From the IMG/VR virus record IMGVR_UViG_3300037294_000399, positions 32,308 to 96,307 of that record: 64,000 bases of DNA; one strand, 5' to 3'. The notes beneath the pieces are model-generated. The model did not search any database. It was not told the DNA's origin and saw only the letters and a list, made by a program, of their open reading frames with translations. A program made the translations under genes and the position numbers. This document shows, piece after piece, positions 3,645 through 40,753 of this stretch; positions within the stretch are counted from its first letter, which is position 1; each line of letters opens with the position of its first letter. Source of the DNA: a virus.

Positions 3645-3848
3645 GTGATTATGGATGTAACATTTAGAAAAGAAATACACGGTAAAGAACTTTACCTATA
3701 TAACGCTAAAGGTGAACTAATATTTAAGCGTTGGTTAAATCAAAATAGGTCAGTGGTTTTTGATGTGATGACCTATGATAAACACACCCTAGTTTCGATA
3801 ACAGATAAAATGTTGGAGGATGATAAAGGTAGTCAAAAAAGTACATAA
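3645..3848 (+). CDS. hypothetical protein
   Basis: operon packing. Confidence 0.6.
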   Translation: MIMDVTFRKEIHGKELYLYNAKGELIFKRWLNQNRSVVFDVMTYDKHTLVSITDKMLEDDKGSQKST

Positions 3849-3890
3849 AAAGTTGCATATTGTTAAATTAGTTAGTACCTTTGTTATATT

Positions 3891-4220
3891 ATGAGTGATG
3901 AAAGAAAAAAAGCTGATAAAAAACCAGTTCCTAAATTGGAACCCAAAAAAAGGGTTGCGCCAATTCCCGTTCCAAAGGTAGAACCTAAGAAACGAGCAGA
4001 GGTTAAACTTATAGCCAAGGAAATTCCTAAACCAATTATTCTAGAACCAACTGAAAAAGTTAAAAGGTCTGAAAATAAATATGTTAGAATATCTTTAGAT
4101 GCTAAACAAGAAGAAAGAAAAGAGTTTAGTGAAAAAATGCAAAGGGGCGAATTAAAATTAGCTTATTATGCGATAGATGGTGATAAAAGTTATCACTATT
4201 ATTTAGTAATGAAAAAATAA
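3891..4220 (+). CDS. hypothetical Pro/Lys-rich protein
   Basis: ATG just after TACCTTTG. Confidence 0.7.
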   Translation: MSDERKKADKKPVPKLEPKKRVAPIPVPKVEPKKRAEVKLIAKEIPKPIILEPTEKVKRSENKYVRISLDAKQEERKEFSEKMQRGELKLAYYAIDGDKSYHYYLVMKK

Positions 4221-4226
4221 ACGGAT

Positions 4227-4622
4227 ATGACTTTAAAAGAGCAAATCAATGCGGGTTTCATGACTGCATTTAAAGCAAAAGATATGGAAAGAAAAAACTT
4301 CTTAGGTCTTGTTAAAGGTGAAATCCAAAATGAAGAAGGAAGAGGTACAGTAACTACTGATGGAAGTGTTTTGATTATTCTTAGAAAATTAGAAAAATCT
4401 ATTAAACAAACAAACTCACCGCAGTCGTTAGTTGAATTGGAATATTTAAAACCTTATTTACCAAATCTTATGAGTGAAGACCAAATCAAAACAATTATTC
4501 AAGGTTATAAAGAATCTGGTTTAACTAATACTGGTCAAATTATGGGCCAATTTAACAAAGAACACAAAGGGTTAGCTGATAATAAATTAGTTTCTGAAAT
4601 TATTAAAGAATTGTTGCCTTAA
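4227..4622 (+). CDS. GatB/YqeY domain protein
   Basis: MTLKEQI..AFKAKD, E..YLKPYLP..MSE, GQIMG motifs. Confidence 0.85.
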   Translation: MTLKEQINAGFMTAFKAKDMERKNFLGLVKGEIQNEEGRGTVTTDGSVLIILRKLEKSIKQTNSPQSLVELEYLKPYLPNLMSEDQIKTIIQGYKESGLTNTGQIMGQFNKEHKGLADNKLVSEIIKELLP

Positions 4623-9587: not shown

Positions 9588-12111
9588 ATGGGTTTACAAA
9601 AAAAAGTAATTGAAAAATTAGAAACTGCAATAGAAAACAAAGATTGGGTGTCTATTGAAGATATTCAAAAGTATCTTAGCAAAGCATTAACAAAACCGAA
9701 CAACTTGATTTTGTGTTCAGATGCTTACAAATATTCACATCACAGATTCTATGGTGGTGAAATGACCAAGATGGTATCTTACTTGGAATCAAGAGGTGGT
9801 AAATTCTCTGAGACAGTATTCTACGGATTACAAATCTTCTTAAAACAATACTTAGAAGGTGTTGCCATTACGAAAGAAGAAGTTGATGAAGCATTTGACT
9901 ATTTAGGTACAAAGCACGGTGTGTTTGGCCGTGACGATGTATTCGATAGAACAAAATTCGATTATATTATCGAGATGTATGATGGTAAATTACCTATCAG
10001 CCTAAAAGCAGTTCCAGAAGGTTAACAAATGTAGCCATTCATACTAGTAATAGTATGTCTAAAGAAATCTAATTGCTGGGAACCCCTTAGAGCCTTTAAC
10101 ACTACAACGTAGATAGCAATATCAAGCGTGAATGTTTGAAAAGATAAAGGATTGGGAAATCAGCAGCGAAGTTTCTAAATTTAATTTCAATTAATTAGTG
10201 CGTTTTTAAAAGTTTATGATATTTATTAATAAACGCATTAATCATGAGAGAGTATAAAAAAGGGAAAGAATCACCATTGTTTAAAGATTTAACTGGTGAA
10301 AAGTTTGGTAAATTAACAGCTAAAAACTACATTTACGATGACACAAAGAAATATAAAAAACATATGTGGATTTGTGATTGTGATTGTGGTAATGAAGCTA
10401 AAGTTAGAACCAATGAATTAACAAAGGGTGAAAGAACACAGTGTAAACAATGTTCAATCAATGAAGTATCAAAAACTAGAACAAGACCAGATAATGGTGC
10501 ATTAATAACAAGAGTTATTAAACAGTATAAAGCTGGTGCTAAAAGAAGAGGTTATGAATTCTTATTAACAGATGAAAAACTAAAGGAATTAATTTTTTCA
10601 AATTGTTATTATTGTGGTGAAGAACCAAAAATAAATAAGGGTGAAGAACGTTATTTTAGAGGTGGTTTAGAGTTTAAAAGAAATGGAATTGATAGATTGA
10701 ATAATAAAATTGGTTATACAAATGAAAATGTTGTTACTTGTTGTGAAACATGTAATAGAGCTAAAATGTGTTTAGAGCATGATGATTTTTTAACCCTTAT
10801 TAATAAAATATACTTAAATTTAGAAAAACGTTCAACGACTATCCCACAAGGGAGTACAGAACAAGCTAATGGTTCTGGAAATGGTTTTGACCCTAGTAAA
10901 TAGGGTTTTGATATAGTCTAGTCTTTATCTAAAGATAAAGCAGTTCGTAAGAGAACGTATTCAACTGTTGCGAGTTGAGTAGAATGTAAACGTCAGTAGT
11001 TGGAACTAAAAATGTTTTGTTCGTTATCGAATCTTTAGATGAGAACTGCGCATGGTTAACCAATTTTTTAGAAACTATCTTGTTGCAAGTATGGTATCCA
11101 ATTACGGTTGCTACACTTTCAAGAGAAGTTCGTAAAATCGTAGATGCTAGTTTTCAAAAAAACACATCATATGATACTGGGTTAAGAGAGTTTCTGGTTG
11201 ATTACGTGTTGAATGACTTCGGTTTCCGTGGTGTATCGTCTGTACAATCAGCTGGTATTGGTGGGTCTGCTCACTTGGTAAACTTTAGAGGTTCTGATAC
11301 AATCATGGCATCTAAATACATCAGAGATTACTACAATACAGAAACAGTTTATGGGTTATCTATCCCAGCAACTGAACACTCTATCATGACACTTAAAGGT
11401 GAAGAAGGTGAATTGGAAATGATGAAACGAGTACTTACAACATTCCCTACTGGGTTAGTTGCGTGTGTATCTGATTCATACAATATCTTTCGTGCATGTT
11501 CTGAGTATTGGGGAACTGAATTGAGAGACTTAGTACTATCTCGCCCATCAGAACCAGGAAATCAACTAGTTATCCGTCCAGATTCTGGTGACGTGTTAAT
11601 GACATTGAAAGAAATTTTCACTATATTATTCGACAAATTCGGTTACACAGTAAACGATAAGGGTTATAAAGTGTTACCACCACAAGTTCGTGTGATTCAA
11701 GGTGATGGTGTTAATCTAGATTCAATTAAAGAAATCTACGCATTGTTAGAGGAAGAAAAAATATCACCAGAAAACTTAGCTTTAGGTATGGGTGGTAAAT
11801 TATTACAAGCAGTGGACCGAGACACATGTGCATTTGCTACCAAAGCTTGTACAGCCGTAGTTGACGGTGTTGAAGTTGAAGTACAGAAAAATCCTACCGA
11901 AATGGACGAGAATGGGAATTTAACAAAAAGTTTCAAAAAGTCTAAAAAGGGTAGATTGAAGTTGGTAAAAACTGATAACGGTTATATTACTTTAACTTCT
12001 AAAGATGAAGGATTCGAAGAAGCTAAGGATGAACTCGTAGAGGTTTTCCGCATGGGAGATATTCTTAAAGAGTGGTCTTTTGAGGAAATCCGTGAGAGAG
12101 CCAAAATTTAA
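9588..12111 (+). CDS. nadV: nicotinamide phosphoribosyltransferase, exons 9588-10022 and 10993-12111
   Basis: SDAYKYSH, AVPEG|SVVGTKNVLF after splicing, DFGFRG, PATEHS, VSDSY, IRPDSGD, IQGDG. Confidence 0.92.
10023..10992 (+). mobile_element. group I intron in NAMPT
   Basis: 5' exon ends in U pairing with GCCATTC (P1); P/Q AATTGCTGGGAA and AATCAGCAG; R/S TCAACGACTA and GATATAGTC; terminal G; splicing restores the frame. Confidence 0.9.
10244..10903 (+). CDS. intron-encoded HNH endonuclease
   Basis: DLTGEKFGKL, CDCDCG, CYYCG, GIDRLNN..GY...NVVTCCETCN..K. Confidence 0.88.
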   Translation: MREYKKGKESPLFKDLTGEKFGKLTAKNYIYDDTKKYKKHMWICDCDCGNEAKVRTNELTKGERTQCKQCSINEVSKTRTRPDNGALITRVIKQYKAGAKRRGYEFLLTDEKLKELIFSNCYYCGEEPKINKGEERYFRGGLEFKRNGIDRLNNKIGYTNENVVTCCETCNRAKMCLEHDDFLTLINKIYLNLEKRSTTIPQGSTEQANGSGNGFDPSK

Positions 12112-12126
12112 CTAATAAAAGCCATT

Positions 12127-13038
12127 CTATAGAATGGCTTTTATGTTTTTTAATATATCATCTTCATCATGTTTGATACTAATTAGGTTAATCTTTTTGA
12201 AACTACAATAATCAAGTTTTATCTTATCTTTCTTTTGTCGGTCCTTTAAACCCAATACACCACCCCATTGTTGTATAGTTTCAAAGTGTTGTCTACCTTG
12301 ATATTCAATACATGTATTATATTTTGGTAAATAGAAATCGAATGGTAATGGTCTTTTATCTCTACAATCTGGAAATCTGTGTTGTGGTGTAAATTCAATA
12401 TCATTTTCAAGTAACCATTCTAAAATTTTTTCTTCACCTTTGGATATTATACATAATGGACATCTAGTACCACTTTTATGGTTCGATGGTAATTGTTCAA
12501 AATCACCATGTTTAGAACAGATAATAGTAACCTTGGTCCTATTATCAACATAATTTACTTTAGAGTAATCATATTTGTTTCCGTGAACCAATTTAGCTTT
12601 TTTAATAAAAGTATCTGTATCGTCACTAAAATCGTTTGAAACCTTATCTAATGAACATTGTTTACAACCACTACCATTTAAATGATTAGTGGCTTTTTGT
12701 GTAAATTCACCATGCAACGGACATTCTATAGTAATACAATTTAATGCACCAATATAATTTATGTTACTATAATTGTAAAAAAAACCATGAATTTTTTCAG
12801 CTTTTTCAATAAATTTATTTCTAGTTGTTTTTGTGCTATTTCTACCACATGAATAGCATCCGTAACCCTTTAAGTGACCATTTGGTGTTTGTTCAAATTC
12901 TCCATGAATAGGACATATAATGATTACTTTAATATTTCTATTGGTATAGTTAACTTTAGTGTAATCATATTTATCACTATGTAGAATAGTTGCCTCAATA
13001 ACAAACTCAGCTGTTGTTTTACGTTTCTCAGCACCCAT
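12127..13038 (-). CDS. DUF723-type Cys/His-repeat endonuclease with C-terminal PD-(D/E)XK/Vsr-like domain
   Basis: three KYDYS..Y..IICP.HG.F.Q...H..G.GC repeats; SKGE, LPFDFYLP..IEYQG.QH. Confidence 0.85.
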   Translation of the reverse strand: MGAEKRKTTAEFVIEATILHSDKYDYTKVNYTNRNIKVIIICPIHGEFEQTPNGHLKGYGCYSCGRNSTKTTRNKFIEKAEKIHGFFYNYSNINYIGALNCITIECPLHGEFTQKATNHLNGSGCKQCSLDKVSNDFSDDTDTFIKKAKLVHGNKYDYSKVNYVDNRTKVTIICSKHGDFEQLPSNHKSGTRCPLCIISKGEEKILEWLLENDIEFTPQHRFPDCRDKRPLPFDFYLPKYNTCIEYQGRQHFETIQQWGGVLGLKDRQKKDKIKLDYCSFKKINLISIKHDEDDILKNIKAIL

Positions 13039-13190
13039 TATTTAAGAGAATTAAAATGTTGTTCTAATAACCAGTTAATTAATTTAGATTTATTGATTTT
13101 TTCATCAGACATTAATTCATAATTATCTTTTGAAATAGATAACGATATTTTTGTTTTTTTATCTTCTTGTGGTTTTATTTTTCTTCCCAT
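13038..13190 (-). CDS. 50-aa ribbon-helix-helix-like protein (absent from ORF track)
   Basis: MGRKIKPQEDKKTKISLSISKDNYELMSDEKINKSKLINWLLEQHFNSLK; TAATG overlap with nuclease start. Confidence 0.75.
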   Translation of the reverse strand: MGRKIKPQEDKKTKISLSISKDNYELMSDEKINKSKLINWLLEQHFNSLK

Positions 13191-13260
13191 GATATTTTAT
13201 TTAAGTATTTGTTATACTAATAAATATCTAGAAATAATATAAAAGTCATAAAATTATGAA

Positions 13261-13398
13261 TTATTTTAATTTTTTATCTTCATAGTGTTTGGTTAATAAC
13301 TCATCGATAAGTTTAGAACGATTATAATTACCCTCATCTATTTTTTTAATTAGGTTTTTATCTATGGCTACACCAATAATTTTATTTTCTTGTTTCAT
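13261..13398 (-). CDS. 45-aa ribbon-helix-helix-like protein (absent from ORF track)
   Basis: MKQENKIIGVAIDKNLIKKIDEGNYNRSKLIDELLTKHYEDKKLK; paralog at 40104-40232. Confidence 0.7.
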   Translation of the reverse strand: MKQENKIIGVAIDKNLIKKIDEGNYNRSKLIDELLTKHYEDKKLK

Positions 13399-13471
13399 AA
13401 TCTTTTTATATAAATATATGTTTTTTATTGATATTGTAAATTAAATGTTGTATCTTTGTAAAAAATATAAT

Positions 13472-13780
13472 ATGATAAAATTAAGTGATACACAAAACTT
13501 TGCAACCAAAGCATGTTATGCCATTGTAAATGGTGAAGAAAAGAACATAATCAAGTCACCAACTGAAATGGACGCTAACGGTAACATTACAAAATCATTT
13601 AAGAAATCAAAACAAGGTTTGCTTAAATTGGTTAAGAATGAAGATGGTACCTTTAGAACAGTAACTTCAATGGATACTGAGTTCAACAATGTTACAGACG
13701 AGTTGGTAGAAGTATTTAGAAACGGTATAATCACTAAAGAATGGACATTCGAAGAAGTGAGAGAACGAGCAAAACTTTAA
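13472..13780 (+). pseudogene. orphan second copy of the NAMPT C-terminus
   Basis: DTQNFATKAC...KEWTFEEVRERAKL aligns with DTCAFATKAC...KEWSFEEIRERAKI; own TATCTTTG promoter and ATG. Confidence 0.9.
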
Positions 13781-13782
13781 TT

Positions 13783-14277
13783 ATGGGAACAAAAAACGTT
13801 ACAATAACAGACGAGTTTGTGTTCTTTTGGAATGGGGTTTACAGTCAATGGCATCCATCAAAGTTTGTAATTGCTGGAATCACTTACACTAGTTGCGAAC
13901 AATACATGATGGCACAAAAAGCTTTATATTTCAAAGATATGGAAGTATATGAAACTATCATGGTTTCTAACAACCCAAAAGAACAAAAAGCTTTGGGTCG
14001 TAGTGTTAAAAATTTTGACACTAAGCGTTGGAATGAAGTATGTAGAGAATTTGTTTATCAAGGTAACTTGGCCAAGTTTACACAAAATTATAACTTTAAA
14101 TCGACACTATTAGCGACTGAAGATAAAGAAATTGTTGAAGCAAGTCCCTACGATAAAATATGGGGAATTGGAATGGGTATTGAGCACCGAAATATTGAAG
14201 ATAAGAGCAAATGGGAAGGTCTTAATTGGTTAGGTGAAGCTATTATGCGAGTAAGAGAAACTTTAAAACAAAAATAA
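13783..14277 (+). CDS. NADAR (YbiA/DUF1768) family protein
   Basis: SQWH, EQYMMAQKA..F.D, K.LGR.V.NFD, VEASPYDKIWGIG, GLNWLG..IM.VR. Confidence 0.92.
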   Translation: MGTKNVTITDEFVFFWNGVYSQWHPSKFVIAGITYTSCEQYMMAQKALYFKDMEVYETIMVSNNPKEQKALGRSVKNFDTKRWNEVCREFVYQGNLAKFTQNYNFKSTLLATEDKEIVEASPYDKIWGIGMGIEHRNIEDKSKWEGLNWLGEAIMRVRETLKQK

Positions 14278-14279
14278 AT

Positions 14280-14729
14280 ATGATAAAATACATTGATGGT
14301 GACTTAGTTAAAGATGCCGAATTATTTGATGTGGTTGCACACTGTTGTAACTGCTTCTGTAGTATGGGTGCTGGTATAGCCCCACAAATCAAAAATAAAT
14401 TTCCAGAAGCTTACGAGGTTGATTGTGAAACAATAAAAGGTGGTAAAAGTAAGTTAGGTACAATTACCTATACCGAAAACACGACACCTATAATTGTTAA
14501 TTTGTATGGTCAATATGACTATACTGTAAGACGAAATGGCCAAATGGATTTAGATTATGATGCTTTACGTTCTGCGTTAAGAGAAATGAAAAACCAATTT
14601 ACGGGGTTACTTTTTGGTATGCCACTTATTGGTTGTGGGCTTGCTGGGGGTGATTGGGATGTGATTGAGGCAATCATTGAAGAAGAACTAGAAGGTGAAA
14701 GAGTGATTGTGGTAAATTACGTTCCCTAA
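14280..14729 (+). CDS. macrodomain protein
   Basis: GDL, HCCNC..MGAGIA..I, NLYGQ, PLIGCGLAGGDW. Confidence 0.9.
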   Translation: MIKYIDGDLVKDAELFDVVAHCCNCFCSMGAGIAPQIKNKFPEAYEVDCETIKGGKSKLGTITYTENTTPIIVNLYGQYDYTVRRNGQMDLDYDALRSALREMKNQFTGLLFGMPLIGCGLAGGDWDVIEAIIEEELEGERVIVVNYVP

Positions 14730-17571: not shown

Positions 17572-17611
17572 ATTAAATTAATGGTTGTGCCTTTGTTAAA
17601 AATATGCCAAT

Positions 17612-17815
17612 ATGATAGAATCAGTTGATTATTTTGGTGGTACAAGTGGTTTAAAAGAACAACAGAAGAAAGATAAAATAAAAAAAGATTACTGTGACAA
17701 TAATAAAATAAAGTTAATAATAATAAAATACAATGAAAAAACAGATAATTTATTAACTAAAATAAATAAAATAAATAAAATAAATAAAATTTTAAAAAAT
17801 AATGGTAAAAATTAA
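17612..17815 (+). pseudogene. C-terminal remnant of a DUF723/PD-(D/E)XK endonuclease
   Basis: FGG..GLKEQQKKDKIKKDYC..NKIKLIIIKY matches ends of 12127 and 19397 ORFs. Confidence 0.7.
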
Positions 17816-19415
17816 ATTTAAAGATTTAACTGAAATTGAAATTGAGAAATTTAGGTTAGAATATGTTAATAGGTTAGAAAATAATTTAACAGTTGAGAAA
17901 TTAGCAATTAAAATTAGTAATGACTTAGGGTTATCGGAAAGAACCGTTAGAAAATGGTTTAAAAAATTAAACTTCAAAGAAAAAGTTGAAATTGAACCAG
18001 AACAGTATGTAAAAGCCAAAACAAGAGTCCATGACGGGACTAAAAAACGTTTTATAATAAGTTGGGCCCAGAACAATACACCTGTTCATACTGGTTTGAT
18101 GAAAAACTTAGAAGCTTATGGTGAATTTATCGATGCTGATATCCATATCATAGCTGGTAGGTATAGAAACCCTACTAGTATGTGGACAAATCAACAAGAA
18201 GAATCAGAATTTTGGGTTTCAGAGGTATTACCATACTTAGACGCTAATAGACATGACATACATAAGTATGTGTCTATTATGTCAGATATTAAGATTCAAC
18301 CAACTGCTGTGAACCCAATGACTGGGTTACAAGCGTTGAGTGGTATTAATTCTTGTGTGTTTGGTAGTCCAAAGGTTCAATTAGAAATGATTCCAGTATT
18401 AGAAGGTAACAACCCTAAAATGATGACTACTACTGGTGCGGTAACTAAAAAGAATTATACTGATTCTAAAGCTGGTAAAACTGGTGACTTCCATCATACA
18501 TTTGGTTTTGTTATCGTTGAGATTAAAGATGATAATACTTTTTTCCTAAGACAGGTAACTGCTGATGACAAAACAGGTAACTTTACTGATTTATATTATC
18601 GAGTTGAAAAAGGTGAAGTAAGTGAAGTAACTAAATTTGCTGCGGCTATCTTAGGTGATATTCACTACGGACATCATGACCAAGAAGTTTTAGATACAAC
18701 GCTTAGTTTATTTGAACGAGTAAAACCACAGCACGTTATATTACATGACGTATTTGATGGTTCTTCAATTAGTCATCATGAGATGAAAGACCCTTTCATT
18801 CAATACGGTAAAGAAATATCTGGCACCAACGACTTAGGTAAAGAGGTTGATTTTATGTTGGAATCTTTAAAGTCGTTTGAAAAGTTTGATAATGTGGTTA
18901 TTGTTAGAAGTAATCATGATGATTTCTTAGACCGTTGGCTTAAGAATGAAGATTGGAAGAAACAACCAACATACAAAAATTCTAGGCTTTATATGAAAAT
19001 GTCTGATATGTTATTAGAACAATATGCTAATGACCCATACAACGTAAAAGGTGTAATCCCAAGTATCATCAATCAGAAGTTTCCTAAGTTTATCACACTA
19101 GGTCGAAGTGCTTCTTATCGAGTTAAAGATTGGGAACTGGGTCAACATGGTGATATTGGTTCAAATGGTAGTCGAGGTTCATTATTACAATTCAGAAAAT
19201 TAAACACTAAGATTGTTGTTGGACATTACCACTCGCCTGGTCGTAAGGACGGAGCGTTAGCCGTAGGTACATCAACAAAATTAAGGGTAGGTTATAACAG
19301 AGGTGCGAGTTCATGGTTACAATCACATGTTATCATCCACACAGATGGTCGAGCCCAACACATAAATTTTATGCTAGATAAAGACGGTAACTTGGGTTAT
19401 ACTACTTTTGAATAA
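17802..19415 (+). CDS. HTH + metallophosphoesterase, resembling phage T5 A1-like proteins
   Basis: N-terminal HTH (LGLSERTVRKW), AQNNT, GDIH, HDVFD, SNHD, HGD.G.NGSRGS, GHYHS. Confidence 0.65.
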   Translation: MVKIKFKDLTEIEIEKFRLEYVNRLENNLTVEKLAIKISNDLGLSERTVRKWFKKLNFKEKVEIEPEQYVKAKTRVHDGTKKRFIISWAQNNTPVHTGLMKNLEAYGEFIDADIHIIAGRYRNPTSMWTNQQEESEFWVSEVLPYLDANRHDIHKYVSIMSDIKIQPTAVNPMTGLQALSGINSCVFGSPKVQLEMIPVLEGNNPKMMTTTGAVTKKNYTDSKAGKTGDFHHTFGFVIVEIKDDNTFFLRQVTADDKTGNFTDLYYRVEKGEVSEVTKFAAAILGDIHYGHHDQEVLDTTLSLFERVKPQHVILHDVFDGSSISHHEMKDPFIQYGKEISGTNDLGKEVDFMLESLKSFEKFDNVVIVRSNHDDFLDRWLKNEDWKKQPTYKNSRLYMKMSDMLLEQYANDPYNVKGVIPSIINQKFPKFITLGRSASYRVKDWELGQHGDIGSNGSRGSLLQFRKLNTKIVVGHYHSPGRKDGALAVGTSTKLRVGYNRGASSWLQSHVIIHTDGRAQHINFMLDKDGNLGYTTFE

Positions 19416-19985
19416 GTTAATTTATCACCAACATTGTCATTATATTTAATAATAATAAGTGGAATATTGTTTAGTAAACAATATTCCCTTTTTATTTTAT
19501 CATTAATTTTCCTAGAATTAAACCCTTGAACCCCACCAAAATGTTCAACTACTTTATAATGTTGAATCCCGTTAAATTCAATACAAATATTAAAATCTGG
19601 TAAATAGAAATCAAAAGGTAATTTTAATTTATTTTTACAATTATTAAATTTATATTGTGGTAAATAATTGATATTAAATGACTCTAAAAAAAACTCTAAT
19701 TTTTTTTTCACCTAGTGATTCATTACAAGTTGGGCAACCATTACCATTCTTATGATTATTTGGTGTTTGGTTAAAAACCCCGTGTTTTAAACATTTTATA
19801 ATTATTTTTTTATGGGCTGAAACATAAATAACTTTAGAATAATCATATGTTTCACCATGTATTTTTTTAAAATCGTTAATTAATTTTAAGATTGTTGGTT
19901 TTTCTAACCCAGCACATTGTTTACAACCTTGGCCATTTTTATGGTTATTAATTGTTTGTGTGAAATTACCACTTTTTTTTATCAT
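19397..19985 (-). pseudogene. frameshifted, 5'-truncated DUF723/PD-(D/E)XK endonuclease
   Basis: two overlapping ORFs joined across an A-run; YDYSKV, C.KHG.F.Q, LPFDFYLP. Confidence 0.8.
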
Positions 19986-23280: not shown

Positions 23281-23397
23281 TTATATGTAATGTTGTATAT
23301 TAGTTTTTTTAATATCTCGATTAATTTTTTCTTTATTATTCTCACGCCAAAGTTTAGAACGTTCTCTAGCTAAAATTTTATTTTCTTCTGGTGTCAT
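23281..23397 (-). pseudogene. truncated N-terminus of an HNH-type gene similar to 27787-28431
   Basis: MTPEENKILARERSKLWRENNKEKI resembles MTLEEKKEAKRLYDMEYRKKNK. Confidence 0.5.
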
Positions 23398-23401
23398 ATC
23401 A

Positions 23402-23539
23402 TTACAAATTTTTAATTAGGTCCTCAATAAATTTAGATTTATTATTTGTTAATTTTTCTAATTTTAAATTAGTTTCATTAGATAAAGTAATACTAACTTT
23501 TACTTTTTTATCTTCTTTTGGTAATTTAGGTCGTGCCAT
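23402..23539 (-). CDS. 45-aa ribbon-helix-helix-like protein (absent from ORF track)
   Basis: MARPKLPKEDKKVKVSITLSNETNLKLEKLTNNKSKFIEDLIKNL; GATATTTATTA upstream. Confidence 0.75.
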   Translation of the reverse strand: MARPKLPKEDKKVKVSITLSNETNLKLEKLTNNKSKFIEDLIKNL

Positions 23540-23638
23540 ATTTTATTCTTTGTTAATAAATATCACGAAAAAATAAAAAAAGTAGCATTTAAACAAGATT
23601 TTTATTTACTTATAATAAAAATGAGTTAAAATTAACTC

Positions 23639-24121: not shown

Positions 24122-24493
24122 ATGAAATTTGATATATTAAAAACAAGACGGGGGAAACTTTCAGAAAAACTAAATAATGAGATTCAAAAACCCAAACCAA
24201 ACATTGAAAATGTTTTAAGAATCATAGATGATTATGAAAAAAATAACTTGGAAACTATAGATAAATTAAAGAAAGAAAAGTTATTTGAAACAAAAAGAAT
24301 AAGTGGTGCGCTTAAACAAACAATAAATGCACATTCAAATATAACAAAAGAATTAATTGGGAGTGCAACTAAAAGAATAATGGGTGCGTTAAAATCAAAT
24401 GATTTAACTCAATCCCAAAAAATTTGTAAAAAAATTAGTAGTATTTATCATACTTTTATAAATATAATTATATTTATAATTAAACTAGAGTTT
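24122..24493 (+). CDS. hypothetical protein with replaced C-terminus (reads in frame into the downstream RHH gene, stop 24625)
   Basis: LIGSATKRI.GAL.SN repeated in 25430-25594. Confidence 0.65.
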
Positions 24494-24625
24494 ATGAAAA
24501 CAAATAAAGATAAAATATCTGTAACTATTTCAAATAAAAATAATGAGTTATTAAATAACTTATCTATTAATAAATCTAAATTAATAGATAAGTTATTAGA
24601 TAATTATTTCAAAAAGATTGATTAA
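24494..24625 (+). CDS. 43-aa ribbon-helix-helix-like protein
   Basis: MKTNKDKISVTISNKNNELLNNLSINKSKLIDKLLDNYFKKID with own ATATTTAT motif. Confidence 0.7.
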   Translation: MKTNKDKISVTISNKNNELLNNLSINKSKLIDKLLDNYFKKID

Positions 24626-24627
24626 TT

Positions 24628-25413
24628 ATGGGTTGTATTATTGAAAATATATCAATAGAAAATAACTATAACGTTATTTATGGTTTGTTAGAACCAAACA
24701 CACATGAGATTAAATATATTGGTAAAACAATTAATTTAAAAGAAAGAGTTAGGAAACATTTACAACCGTCAAAATTGGTTAAAAAGAATTATAAAAACAA
24801 TTGGTTAAATAAATTAATTAAAAATAACGAGAGACCAATTGTTGTTGTTCTAGAAAATTGTTCAAGTGAAGAAAACTTAAATGATGCAGAGATTAAATGG
24901 ATTTCTCACTACTTGGATATAGGTTGTAGTTTAACAAATGCAACTATAGGTGGTGATGGTGGTAAAATGTTACCCGAATCGATTACCAAAATGAAGATGA
25001 CCAAAAAAGAAAACCCTCAAACACCGTACTGGTTAAATAAAGTTTTTAGTGAAACACATCGAAATAATATATCGTGTGGGAAAAAAGGTTATACACCAAC
25101 AATTGAAACTCGTAATAAATTGTCAGAATCACACAAGGGTTTAAATATTTGGAGTAAGGGTAAACAATTAAGTTTAGAAATTAAAGAAAAAATGAGTATG
25201 AGTAAGTCTGGTAAACCAAAAAATTTAACTCCAGTTTATCAATTATCATTAAATAACGAAATAATAAAGGAATGGGGTAACCCATACGAAGCCGAGCAAT
25301 TTCTATCAATAAGTCGAGGAAAAATAAATTCTGTTTGTAATGGAAAAAGAAAAACGACTGGTGGTTTTAAATGGGTTTATATCAAAGACTATAAGGATGG
25401 CGATGAAAATTAA
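24628..25413 (+). CDS. free-standing GIY-YIG homing endonuclease (NUMOD3/NUMOD1-type tail)
   Basis: IYGL..YIGKT..RVRKH, E.KWI, LTN.T.GGDGG, C.GKRKT.GGFKW. Confidence 0.9.
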   Translation: MGCIIENISIENNYNVIYGLLEPNTHEIKYIGKTINLKERVRKHLQPSKLVKKNYKNNWLNKLIKNNERPIVVVLENCSSEENLNDAEIKWISHYLDIGCSLTNATIGGDGGKMLPESITKMKMTKKENPQTPYWLNKVFSETHRNNISCGKKGYTPTIETRNKLSESHKGLNIWSKGKQLSLEIKEKMSMSKSGKPKNLTPVYQLSLNNEIIKEWGNPYEAEQFLSISRGKINSVCNGKRKTTGGFKWVYIKDYKDGDEN

Positions 25414-25429
25414 AATAAAAAAAATAATA

Positions 25430-25594
25430 CCAATAACTTCAGTGTTGATTGGTTCAGCAACAAAAAGAATACATGGTGCTCTTTTAAGTAATGGTTCAAA
25501 ACATAATCACTATCTAAGGGTTCACAAAGCAACATTAATGCTAATAACAATGGTTTTAATAGTGGCAAGTGTATTTGTGGTATTAATAAAATAA
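25430..25594 (+). pseudogene. orphan original C-terminus of gene 24122, with TM helix
   Basis: PITSVLIGSATKRIHGALLSN vs NITKELIGSATKRIMGALKSN. Confidence 0.8.
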
Positions 25595-37806: not shown

Positions 37807-37904
37807 GCGAGAGTGGCGAAGTGGTAAACGCTAAGGTCTTTAGCCCGAAGTACAAGGGAACAACTAGGGACTGGGTGTCGGTGGTTCGAGTCCACCCTCT
37901 CGCA
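37807..37904 (+). ncRNA. tRNA-like RNA with elongated anticodon arm
   Basis: GCGAGAG/CTCTCGC, D arm GCGAAGTGGTAAACGC, GTCTTTAG/CTAGGGAC stem with 20-nt loop, GGTGGTTCGAGTCCACC. Confidence 0.75.
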
Positions 37905-38001
37905 CAAAATTGGGGAATAGCAACATGAAGGTCGGCAAACTTTCAGACGGTTATAATCCTTTCTATCACGTTTAGCTTTGCCGAGCGACATAGTGATAGT
38001 T

Positions 38002-38183: not shown

Positions 38184-38282
38184 ATATCGTTAGTTCAATG
38201 GTAGAATACCGAAATGGGAACACATCGGAAGATGCAGTACCAATCGCTTGCGGTGACATAGGTTCGATTCCTATACGATGTA
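38184..38282 (+). ncRNA. tRNA-like RNA with 12-nt anticodon loop and long variable arm
   Basis: ATATCGT/ACGATGT, TAGTTCAATGGTAGAAT, CCGA/TCGG, ATAGGTTCGATTCCTAT. Confidence 0.7.
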
Positions 38283-38574: not shown

Positions 38575-38832
38575 ATGTGCCAGCGCTGGTCATTTTTACT
38601 TAAAATAAGATTTTGTAATAAAACTTTAATGCCTTATAAATTTGAAATATTACTAGAGACAACGCATTCACCTAATATAATTTTTAATACTGAAATTGAA
38701 AATAAACAAATTTTTAAACCATCAAAATATAAACCTTTAAATAAATTTAGTGGGTGGAATGAATGTTTTAACGTAAATATCGCAGAAAATTTGATAGAAC
38801 TAATAACGAAAAAAATAAAACATGGCAAATAA
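38575..38832 (+). pseudogene. C-terminal remnant of an endonuclease like 38929-39879
   Basis: MPYKFEIL..IFNTE..KYKP..KFSG.NECF vs MPYKYDII..VFNIE..KYTP..KFHGMGECY. Confidence 0.7.
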
Positions 38833-38932
38833 AAAAATTTGTACCAATAAGAAAGCATACTTTGAGTATTTCATTCTAGAGAAACACACTGCTGGTATCC
38901 AACTACAAGGTTCAGAAGTTAAAGAAAATTAA
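38822..38932 (+). pseudogene. orphan 5' end of smpB (MANKKICTNKKAYFEYFILEKHTAGIQLQGSEVKEN*)
   Basis: aligns to TNRKARFEYEIIETFVSGIVLVGSEVK of 40310. Confidence 0.9.
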
Positions 38933-39879
38933 TTTAATTGTTTATTACAATAGTTTAAAATTTCTGGTTTATCTTTTATATAATAACACTCACCCATACC
39001 ATGGAATTTTATAGTCGGGGTGTATTTAATTTTTTTAAAATACCTGTGTAACGCTTTTTCTATGTTAAACACTAATTCTGGTTCAGCTTCATGTGTTAAT
39101 ATTATATCATATTTATAAGGCATATGTTTATTACTAGGGTATCTTCCTTTTAAGTTGTTTATTGTTATACCTATTTTAATGAATTCTTCAGTATCATTAT
39201 AACATTTAATAATATATAACATTGGTTTAGCCTTTATGTTTTTAGATATAATATTTTTCCAACTTGATAGTGAAAAACTATGTGAATTATTAATTGCTTT
39301 TTTAGACACCGTTATATAACCACATTTACGGCAACCACAACCTTTTAAATGCATATTAGGTGTTTGTTCAAAGTCACCATGTATTGGACAAATAATTGTG
39401 ATATTAACTTTACTATTTAAATAAATAATTTTAGAATAATTATATTTATCGCTATGAACTTTTTCGGCTTTTAATATGAACTCATTATTTGATGTGGTTC
39501 TATCCTCATTAAAACACTTCCAACAACCAACACCACTAATATGAGAACTTGGTGTTTGTTCAAATTTATCATGTATTGGGCAAATTATTTTAATTTTTTC
39601 ATAACAATTTTTATAATCTACCAATGAATAATTAAATTTATTTTTATGAACTATATTACATTTATTAATAAATTCTTCATTAGTTAAACCTTTTCCAGAA
39701 CATTTAATACAACCATTACCTTTTAAATGGTTATGTACTAATTGTTCAAAAACACCATGTTCAGAACAAATTATTTTAACGTTAGTTCTTTTATTAATAT
39801 AGTTAACTTTTGAATAATCATATTTATCACCATGTATTAATTTAGCTTTTGAAATAAAATTTTCAGTTTTATTTTCCAT
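38929..39879 (-). CDS. DUF723-type repeat endonuclease with C-terminal GIY-YIG/T5orf172-like domain
   Basis: three KY.YS..IIC..H..FEQ...H..G.GC repeats; LYII..FIKIGIT..R..E..LH. Confidence 0.85.
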   Translation of the reverse strand: MENKTENFISKAKLIHGDKYDYSKVNYINKRTNVKIICSEHGVFEQLVHNHLKGNGCIKCSGKGLTNEEFINKCNIVHKNKFNYSLVDYKNCYEKIKIICPIHDKFEQTPSSHISGVGCWKCFNEDRTTSNNEFILKAEKVHSDKYNYSKIIYLNSKVNITIICPIHGDFEQTPNMHLKGCGCRKCGYITVSKKAINNSHSFSLSSWKNIISKNIKAKPMLYIIKCYNDTEEFIKIGITINNLKGRYPSNKHMPYKYDIILTHEAEPELVFNIEKALHRYFKKIKYTPTIKFHGMGECYYIKDKPEILNYCNKQLN

Positions 39880-40027
39880 TTTTTAAAGTGTTAAAATGTT
39901 CAATTAATAACCATTCGAAGAATTTACTCTTATTATTAATTACATCTAAATGAATTATTAATTCATTAGGAATCTGGATACTTATGGTTTGTTTTCTCTC
40001 TTTTGGTGATAATTTGTCTTTTTTCAT
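39869..40027 (-). CDS. 52-aa ribbon-helix-helix-like protein (absent from ORF track)
   Basis: MKKDKLSPKERKQTISIQIPNELIIHLDVINNKSKFFEWLLIEHFNTLKNGK; paralog of 13038-13190. Confidence 0.75.
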   Translation of the reverse strand: MKKDKLSPKERKQTISIQIPNELIIHLDVINNKSKFFEWLLIEHFNTLKNGK

Positions 40028-40103
40028 AATATTTTGTTTGTATACATATAAATATCATGAAACAATGAAAACGGTGAAAAAACCGTAAAATAATTAAATT
40101 ATT

Positions 40104-40232
40104 TTACTTTTTGTTAATATAATTTTTTAAAAGACTAACTAATAACTGAGTACGGTTATAATTACCTTCTTTTACTTTTTTAATTAACTCTGTTGGAAGG
40201 GTGATGTTGAGTTTAGTTGTATCTGTTTTCAT
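40104..40232 (-). CDS. 42-aa ribbon-helix-helix-like protein (absent from ORF track)
   Basis: MKTDTTKLNITLPTELIKKVKEGNYNRTQLLVSLLKNYINKK; paralog of 13261-13398. Confidence 0.7.
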   Translation of the reverse strand: MKTDTTKLNITLPTELIKKVKEGNYNRTQLLVSLLKNYINKK

Positions 40233-40309
40233 AAATATAAATATAGTTATAAAAATTAAATAAGTAAATAAATTGTATAATTAGAAATTATTTAGTACCT
40301 TTGTATATT

Positions 40310-40753
40310 ATGAAAGTTATTTTAACTAATCGCAAAGCGAGATTTGAGTATGAGATTATCGAAACTTTTGTATCGGGAATCGTCTTGGTTGGGTCTGAGG
40401 TAAAGAGTATCAAGGCTGGTAAGGTTTCTATTGTTGAGGCTTATTGTTTCATCTCCAATGGTGAGTTGTTTATCAAAGGCATGCACATTGCTGAACATAA
40501 AGAAGGTGGTAAACATAACAATCATTTGCCGCTAAGAGATAGAAAGCTTCTTATGAATAAAAAAGAAATCTTTAAGTTAGATAAAAGTTTATCACAAAAG
40601 GGCTTGACTATTGTACCTATTGAAGTTATAATATCGAACACTGGGTTCGTCAAGGTTAACATTGGTTTGGGTAAAGGTAAACACTTATACGATAAAAAAC
40701 AGTCCATCAAAGAAAAAGACTTAAAAAGAGATTTAGAAAGAAACACTGATTAA
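40310..40753 (+). CDS. smpB: SsrA-binding protein SmpB
   Basis: NRKARFEY, G.VL.GSEVKS, R.RKLL..KKE, GLTIVP, GKGK..YDK. Confidence 0.95.
   Translation: MKVILTNRKARFEYEIIETFVSGIVLVGSEVKSIKAGKVSIVEAYCFISNGELFIKGMHIAEHKEGGKHNNHLPLRDRKLLMNKKEIFKLDKSLSQKGLTIVPIEVIISNTGFVKVNIGLGKGKHLYDKKQSIKEKDLKRDLERNTD

Follow-up and report, generated by a model that had tools for sequence, protein, structure and literature searches.

Within a 64,000-nucleotide (nt) stretch of phage DNA, positions 32,308 to 96,307 of the IMG/VR record IMGVR_UViG_3300037294_000399 (hereafter the window), two cassettes were found in which a pair of small genes, A and B, precedes the gene for a predicted homing endonuclease. One cassette lies at the 3' end of the NAMPT gene (cassette 1) and the other at the 5' end of smpB (cassette 2). 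The assignment of the small proteins to the ribbon-helix-helix (RHH) fold is well supported but not proven, and we consider them, from their sequences, structure models and analogy, rather likely to be repressors of the Arc/Mnt/CopG type acting on the cassette promoters, with B feeding back on its own operon. The cassettes have a common anatomy, one of them is present or absent at the same site in close relatives, RHH genes are linked to nuclease genes in other phages, and the leader that carries A and B is exchanged as a module.

With its 64 kb, the window forms the final part of a 96.3-kb record whose estimated completeness is 27%, so the source is a large phage. Its genes are nearly all on the plus strand, where the Bacteroidota-type -7 box TAnnTTTG occurs 87 times against about 43 expected, and nuclease genes crowd this phage.

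Anatomy of the cassettes and the displaced gene ends

The original prediction had described two minus-strand cassettes with the same order, RHH-A, RHH-B and DUF723-repeat nuclease, in which the B gene overlaps the nuclease start. The coordinates of the open reading frames (ORFs; Table 1) and the 44% identity found both between the two A proteins (E 8e-11) and between the two B proteins (E 8e-9) bore out this arrangement, and the overlap was verified as 1 nt in cassette 1 and 11 nt in cassette 2. For cassette 1, the predicted range of 12127-13470 was right in content and too narrow in extent, the inserted DNA being wider (about 11812-13484). These borders came from comparison with a relative, G001 (87-94% DNA identity), in which NAMPT is uninterrupted and the NADAR gene follows directly. 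Identity to G001 falls from about 97% to about 60% at about 11812 and resumes at about 13485, with 91.7% over 13485-14300. The C-terminus of G001 NAMPT matches the orphan copy in the window, unlike the end now in use, which is 64% identical to that copy. Because a relative with an intact NAMPT matches the orphan end and similarity to it breaks at these two points, the comparison indicated that cassette 1 is a 1.67-kb insertion that supplied NAMPT with a foreign 3' end and left the native one as an orphan. The insert contains the recoded NAMPT 3' end, a likely bidirectional terminator, the nuclease, B and A genes and a promoter region with an outward TATCTTTG box, and its absence from the same site in G001 constitutes a presence/absence polymorphism.

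NAMPT is interrupted a second time (9588-11100): the NAMPT_N part ends at 10025 (...KAVPEG, stop), the catalytic part resumes near 11020, and an HNH/EndoVII-type ORF (10244-10903) with its own ATATTTATTAATAAA block lies between the pieces. G001 carries a partly homologous insert 100 nt further downstream in NAMPT than this one. An Rfam search over 9900-13900 detected no group I or group II intron or other RNA family.

The geometry at smpB mirrors that at NAMPT, with the smpB 5' end on the leader side and the NAMPT 3' end on the nuclease side. Compared with SmpB of eight relatives, the orphaned 5' end has 20-25 of 31 residues identical and the current N-terminus 16-20 of 30; the latter is closer to more distant SmpBs. 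These comparisons suggested that the 5' end now in use is probably foreign. For cassette 2, the search for cassette-free counterparts turned up more distant SmpB genes but no close relative. Just upstream of this cassette are two over-long tRNA-like genes (about 99 nt; 37807-37905 and 38184-38282), the first of which ARAGORN read with a four-base anticodon (gccc).

The two nucleases have three Zn-repeat units in common (42% identity, E 2e-47) and unrelated C-termini. Nuclease 1 matched Pfam DUF723 (27.7 bits) and phrog_559 (3e-77), and nuclease 2 matched Pfam T5orf172 (28.2 bits, above the Pfam cut-off), MUG113 and phrog_681 (2.8e-57). A phmmer search of the nuclease 1 C-terminus against PDB sequences gave no match, and its relatives were found by fold search alone. 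The AlphaFold 2 (AF2) model of this region (predicted local distance difference test, pLDDT, 88.9) shows an alpha-beta-beta-beta-alpha-beta core, for which the best Foldseek matches were the catalytic domain of I-Bth0305I (3r3p; template modelling score 0.68 on target) and Vsr (1vsr), both with a probability of 1.00; E202, D234, E245, H251 and D271 are invariant. Sequence and model together indicate a Vsr-like/EDxHD PD-(D/E)XK domain in nuclease 1 and a T5orf172/GIY-YIG domain in nuclease 2, in agreement with the predicted difference between a PD-(D/E)XK-like and a GIY-YIG-like catalytic end. Both domains come from families with proven homing enzymes (I-Bth0305I; T5orf172), and each cassette is predicted to be a free-standing homing-endonuclease element. 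Further copies of the Zn-repeat/EDxHD nuclease were seen at 19397-19985 (-) and 17594-17764 (+), one broken by TAG and one a fragment. An intact 305-aa copy outside the window (genome 29334-30251, -) has a GATATTTAT block and no RHH genes.

Table 1. Coordinates, in window numbering, of the cassettes and of related features.
Feature	Position	Strand	Description
Cassette 1 (NAMPT)
Foreign recoded NAMPT 3' end	11812-12111	+	Arrived with cassette 1; now completes functional gene 11017-12111
Palindromic hairpin	12115-12144		13-bp stem with A-run and T-run, between the convergent NAMPT and nuclease genes; from terminator scan; likely bidirectional terminator
Nuclease 1	12127-13038	-	303 aa; three DUF723/DUF4379 Zn-repeat units, predicted Vsr-like/EDxHD PD-(D/E)XK domain (residues ~197-303)
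RHH-B1	13038-13190	-	50 aa; basic N-terminal arm; stop overlaps nuclease ATG by 1 nt; B clade
A-B spacer	13191-13260	-	Short hairpin and ACTTTT run after A stop, then conserved GATATTTAT block 13220-13228
RHH-A1	13261-13398	-	45 aa; EGNYNRSKLI motif; A clade
Leader end	13399-13484	both	Candidate A promoter on -, outward box on +; wholly within inserted DNA
Orphaned native NAMPT 3' end	13485-13780	+	G001 similarity resumes; translated end nearly identical to G001 C-terminus
Cassette 2 (smpB)
Orphaned native smpB 5' end	38822-38932	+	36 codons; Pfam SmpB 1.5e-9
Nuclease 2	38929-39879	-	316 aa; three Zn-repeat units, T5orf172 (GIY-YIG-related) domain
RHH-B2	39869-40027	-	52 aa; 11 nt overlap with nuclease start
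A-B spacer	40028-40103	-	Hairpin 40071-40086 and T-run; GATATTTAT at 40048-40056
RHH-A2	40104-40232	-	42 aa; A clade
Leader end	40233-40309	both	Candidate A2 promoter on -, outward box on +
smpB 5' end now in use	40310-40410	+	Probably foreign; fused in frame to native remainder; gene 40310-40753
Other family members
Decayed cassette	23281-23539	-	RHH gene 23402-23539, GATATTTAT at 23556, then 38-aa stub resembling HNH-type N-terminus
Third family member	24494-25413	+	RHH-B-like ORF 24494-24625, ATATTTAT at 24470; then GIY-YIG/NUMOD3 homing endonuclease 24628-25413

The A and B proteins, their linkage to nucleases and exchange of the leader

A profile built from six sequences was searched against 1.84 billion proteins (E<=1e-3) and retrieved 343 cluster representatives of the small-ORF family, nearly all 41-70 aa and mostly 41-58 aa long, with the pattern K-I-S-I-T-I ... 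N-K-S-K-L-I-x-x-L-L. The median pairwise ratio of nonsynonymous to synonymous substitution rates (dN/dS) was 0.17 for A (21 pairs) and 0.22 for B (82 pairs), and was below 0.5 in all pairs. Since the family comprises 343 clusters and its dN/dS is about 0.2, these data indicated that the small ORFs are real genes. PHROGs contained no family for any of the four small proteins; tblastn of B1 and P0010 against 50,697 GenBank phage records gave nothing beyond an E=3 match in the huge phage LR756501, located 46 nt ahead of a Zn-repeat nuclease match, and a scan of genome contigs (185,579 species) for the pattern NKSKLINW returned no relative.

The RHH nature proposed in the original prediction received weak but consistent support from profiles, AF2 modelling and fold searches. 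Over 87 family members, profile matches were obtained to the CcdA N-terminus (36/87), RHH_3 (16/87) and RHH_1 (5/87), with a best E of 4e-5, and in a PDB profile search CcdA and CopG appeared at E 0.6-0.8. B1 as modelled by AF2 (pLDDT 85) is extended at residues ~11-20 and helical at 21-29 and 34-49, as in a strand-helix-helix unit of ~45 residues, the strand not being formed in this monomer model. The top Foldseek rows for it were CopG (E>1), TacA, AtaR and Arc. When it was compared exhaustively with 48,161 PDB chains, the top ~28 rows were almost all RHH proteins, the best being the omega repressor (Z 3.6, root-mean-square deviation 3.1, 41 aligned residues) and others CopA, the RHH domain of PutA, ORF56, NikR, ParG, TacA, DinJ, RelB and Arc. 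The predicted B1 dimer (two copies, 87-row alignment) scored 0.38 against a mark of 0.42 and was counted neither for nor against the assignment.

Linkage to nuclease genes in other genomes, also anticipated by the original prediction, was found when the family alignment was scanned over IMG/VR: 75 of the 79 viral loci obtained have an ORF of 190-510 aa whose start lies within -40 to +6 nt of the RHH-B stop. The 52 distinct downstream ORFs include 22 of EndoVII/HNH type (phrog_1035), 9-11 with Zn repeats, 8 GIY-YIG, 1 LAGLIDADG and 3 DUF7487. A second family member stands upstream in tandem, 27-99 nt away, in 57/79 loci. A and B are mutually paralogous, and in the family tree all 39 distinct first-position proteins (39/39) fall in one clade (support 97/68), with second-position and solitary ones on the other side. 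Since the first-position proteins form a clade of their own, the tree indicates that A and B are old paralogs kept in a fixed order. Other layouts were also noticed. One contig (L025, IMGVR_UViG_3300014208_001391) carries two complete A-B-nuclease cassettes (87-1472 and 3845-4428), 2.4 kb apart and antiparallel to the genes between them; in L049 (2575-4293), and also in L162, L164 and L167, the RHH-nuclease operon and a second RHH gene diverge instead of being in tandem, a layout nearer that of P22 mnt/arc.

Two loci, L096 and L097, are 94% identical over 452 bp that begin 74 nt ahead of A and extend 12 nt beyond the B stop, and their nucleases (Zn-repeat versus HNH-type) and flanks are unrelated. 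The same leader span is common to L100 and L106 at 88%. Because near-identical leaders adjoin unrelated nucleases and flanks, the alignments indicate that the ~450-bp leader is exchanged as a unit between phage contigs. Together with the absence of cassette 1 from G001, this shuffling of leader and nucleases agrees with the mobile family that had been proposed.

Two further members lie in the window (Table 1). The RHH-B-like ORF of the third one matched RHH_3 at 9e-4, and its downstream ORF has GIY-YIG and NUMOD3 domains. The reading frame of gene 24122 continues, by way of a hydrophobic tail, into this RHH ORF, which forms a replaced C-terminus; the old C-terminus was located at about 25430-25594 (55% identical over 40 aa), and the same fusion of gene 24122 with RHH occurs in the 166-aa homologue P0047.

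Leader DNA and the proposed control of the nuclease

Three leader elements recur across loci: a sigma-70-like site with TATATTTA so near the A start that little or no mRNA leader would be left, a hairpin with ACTTTT after A, and an xTATTTAT block before B. On the minus strand of the window, the candidate A1 promoter consists of TTTACA (13440-13435), a 16-nt spacer and TATATT (13418-13413), with TATATTTAT at 13410-13418; the candidate A2 promoter consists of TTTACT (40268-40263), a 17-nt spacer and TATATT (40245-40240), and it too implies little or no mRNA leader. The A-B spacer of cassette 1 is presumed to be the promoter of the B-nuclease operon. The leader motif that the original prediction had seen in both cassettes was recovered as GATATTTAT in both A-B spacers; it occurs 8 times in the window against 2.15 expected, a number reached in 0 of 100 shuffles of the window. 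The hairpins that follow A resemble terminators in position and T-run only, being short and of low stability (-1 to -9 kcal/mol). RNAalifold gave no consensus structure for 18 B leaders, and a repeat search of both leaders returned AT-rich noise, except that the two promoter blocks of cassette 2 resemble each other over 21 nt. The 8-bp dyad ATTAGTAT/ATACTAAT was considered as a general operator or hairpin and dropped: it is perfect in L111, L114, L119 and L122 and is not kept clade-wide.

The predicted outward box was also found on the plus strand of both cassettes: TATCTTTG at 13451-13458, and TACCTTTG at 40296-40303, just ahead of the smpB ATG at 40310. Boxes of this type (reverse complement CAAAnnTA), 53-90 nt before the first RHH gene, recur in 21/53 distinct cassettes against 5.1 expected. 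Given that 39/54 cassettes run opposite to the genes on both sides, transcription of phage genes may have to be started again, and this enrichment fits such a need.

A second signal, ATATTTAT(N0-6)ATAAA, was counted 14 times in the genome where 2.7 occurrences were expected, 10 of the 14 lying 6-11 nt ahead of an ORF start. ATATTTAT was rejected as an RHH operator because RHH-less nuclease genes carry it too. For the same reason, the whole block is best read as a start or promoter-type signal of the cassettes and is no proof of RHH binding. In this record it marks the starts of most nuclease cassettes (GIY-YIG, HNH-type, Zn-repeat and RHH), and it also stands ahead of three function-unassigned genes, at genome 17261(-), genome 18767(+) and window 42361(+). 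The box of ordinary phage genes is TAnnTTTG, and by its distribution the ATATTTAT(N0-6)ATAAA block looks like a distinct promoter class for selfish genes.

We propose that each cassette is a homing-endonuclease element inserted antiparallel into a phage gene, where a recoded copy of the displaced gene end would keep the target whole in an allele that is presumably no longer cut. A would be transcribed from its own promoter up to the hairpin and T-run, and B from the second promoter block, in translational coupling with the nuclease, and the outward host-type box could restart transcription of the downstream phage genes. Binding of A and B to the leader would limit nuclease synthesis to a brief, weak pulse, B providing feedback on the operon that it heads, and such control of its own may let a dangerous nuclease gene move between phages. 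The clade order and the overlap of B agree with an Arc/Mnt-like layout: two RHH paralogs, one of them co-transcribed ahead of the payload.

Several results weigh against control by RHH repressors. The window proteins score below the curated Pfam cut-offs (CcdA 16.1 bits versus 22.4, RHH_3 19.6 versus 21.6), and the fold Z-scores do not exceed 3.6, a low level that is normal for an alignment of ~40 residues. An operator for A or B was not identified in the leader analyses of the cassettes; the dyad between the promoter block and the B start had 61% of cells paired versus 59% in shuffles, and the ORFs behind ATATTTAT(N0-6)ATAAA, mostly nuclease or RHH genes, include RHH-less nucleases. Of the 80 closest relatives of nuclease 1, only 4 had the leader, so that nucleases of this kind can do without it; set against the 75/79 RHH loci with a nuclease-sized ORF, the linkage is one-sided.

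A wider version of repressor control, in which the A/B leader is a transferable control-and-insulation unit with a two-repressor pulse circuit and the RHH proteins act in trans on all resident nuclease cassettes, is conceivable and, in our judgement, doubtful. Action in trans was considered because nearly all nuclease cassettes, RHH-less ones too, have the ATATTTAT(N0-6)ATAAA block. If it took place, the proteins would be a genome-wide brake on resident homing nucleases, or would confer a form of 'immunity' against incoming ones in co-infection.

Other roles for the small proteins were weighed. They might be beneficial cargo, an alternative raised in the moraphage paper (PMC12619734): host-directed regulators or free-standing mimics of antitoxins that help the phage, for instance to withstand a toxin-antitoxin defence of the host, with the nuclease hitch-hiking, or the reverse. 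Antitoxin-like genes are indeed abundant in related large Bacteroidota phages, and the leader moves as its own unit; however, 75/79 members stand directly ahead of a nuclease-sized ORF, which is tighter than expected for independent cargo, and a bare RHH domain has no toxin-neutralising part, so we regard this role as improbable. The decayed copy at 23281-23539, which kept RHH and lost the nuclease, is compatible with cargo and with repressors of the cassette alike. Similarly low is the likelihood that the main targets of the RHH proteins are the outward promoter and the adjoining phage genes, and not the nuclease, so that they would ease the transcription conflict that an antiparallel insert creates. 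Enrichment of the outward TAnnTTTG box in other cassettes, its distance of 11 nt from the -35-like hexamer of the A promoter and the antiparallel orientation of 39/54 would suit such insulation. However, the box is present in no more than about 40% of cassettes, an RHH gene is also carried by same-strand cassettes such as 24494-25413, and B is coupled to the nuclease and not to the flank.

The original prediction had also offered nuclease antidotes as an option, RHH-B (or A) binding and neutralising the nuclease protein like a type II antitoxin, so that the pair would be an addiction module. There are weak matches to CcdA, and a small upstream gene overlaps the 'toxic' gene as in type II toxin-antitoxin operons. 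These matches, however, cover only the N-terminal RHH DNA-binding part of CcdA (profile positions 1-38 of 71), and the A/B proteins (42-58 aa in the family, 42-52 aa for those considered here) have room for the RHH domain only: the chain ends about 5-10 residues after helix 2, which in B1 ends at residue 49 of 50, and a toxin-binding tail is absent. Moreover, the downstream genes are not one toxin family, the same leader standing ahead of unrelated nuclease folds that one small binder would hardly inhibit, and the antidote option, which we judge very improbable, was not upheld. Least probable is a helper role in which the RHH proteins bind target or donor DNA for cleavage-site choice, strand invasion or protection of the recoded allele: every copy encodes proteins of DNA-binding type, and A and B diverge (44% identity) between cassettes with different targets, but the nucleases have their own multi-unit DNA-binding arrays, near-identical leaders occur at unrelated sites with unrelated nucleases, and the RHH sequence does not track the target.

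Relation to known systems

The means usually considered by which homing genes limit their own harm are RNA hairpins, borrowed promoters and repression of the nuclease gene by its own product. If unrelated nuclease families exchange a dedicated regulator, this would add a portable means to that list, and it may help to explain why homing genes pile up in large phages from the environment. With about 450 bp and two ~45-aa proteins the module is compact, its empty-site and filled-site alleles are defined, and it illustrates that a mobile element can have among its core components ORFs below 60 aa, which the usual cut-offs pass over and PHROGs do not contain.

In the immI region of phage P22, the homologous RHH repressors Arc and Mnt control the ant operon, Arc being encoded by the first gene of the repressed operon and Mnt by a separate unit. 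The cassettes likewise have two RHH paralogs, B corresponding to Arc and A to Mnt. They differ in that mnt is divergent from arc and the P22 payload is an antirepressor, whereas A and B are in tandem and the payload is a nuclease. The proposed control would also resemble that by C proteins of restriction systems. Replacement of gene ends by mobile endonuclease elements is known from the hybrid atp6 of Allomyces. There, as in the intronless homing of the T-even Seg/Mob type, a foreign gene terminus is brought in and the old one is left as a stub; the cassettes differ from the Allomyces case in their phage setting and in their two opposite geometries.

The Arc protein of IS605-family transposons represses element promoters, and arc genes have been noted beside homing endonuclease genes (bioRxiv 10.64898/2026.09.24.754181). 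It is, like A and B, an RHH protein of ~50 aa encoded by a selfish element, but those elements are bacterial transposons with TnpA/TnpB, whereas the present ones are phage homing cassettes with a distinct family without PHROG match. Homing genes of T4-type phages show I-TevI autorepression at its own promoter, late promoters, ribosome-binding-site hairpins and embedded promoters for downstream genes (PMC2988022). Limitation of nuclease output at its own promoter, promoters for downstream genes that travel along, and insertion in or near conserved genes would be common to both; the T4-type repressor is the nuclease itself or an RNA hairpin, unlike the separate, dedicated DNA-binding genes proposed here. 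T5orf172 homing endonucleases with CapR/DUF723/DUF4397 Zn-finger arrays and domain swapping have been described (Barth et al. 2023, PMC10448857). Nuclease 2, with T5orf172 and Zn repeats, is alike, and nuclease 1 combines the same array with an I-Bth0305I/Vsr-like domain (3r3p); an RHH leader was not described for those enzymes.

The nearest precedent is in moraphages, where a CcdA/HicB-like 'antitoxin' gene is paired with PacI-like putative homing endonucleases and regulation was suggested (Arch Virol 2025, PMC12619734). Here too a small RHH-type gene stands beside multi-copy homing endonuclease genes of large aquatic Bacteroidota phages, and as the pairing is already mentioned in print, the gain over existing knowledge is moderate. 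That account is one paragraph on one nuclease type, without anatomy. The present cassettes have two ordered RHH paralogs, a ~450-bp leader shared by at least four nuclease classes, an outward promoter box, a likely terminator, replaced gene ends and an empty-site relative; what is new is the two-paralog structure, the sharp leader borders, the outward-promoter statistics and the empty-site comparison.

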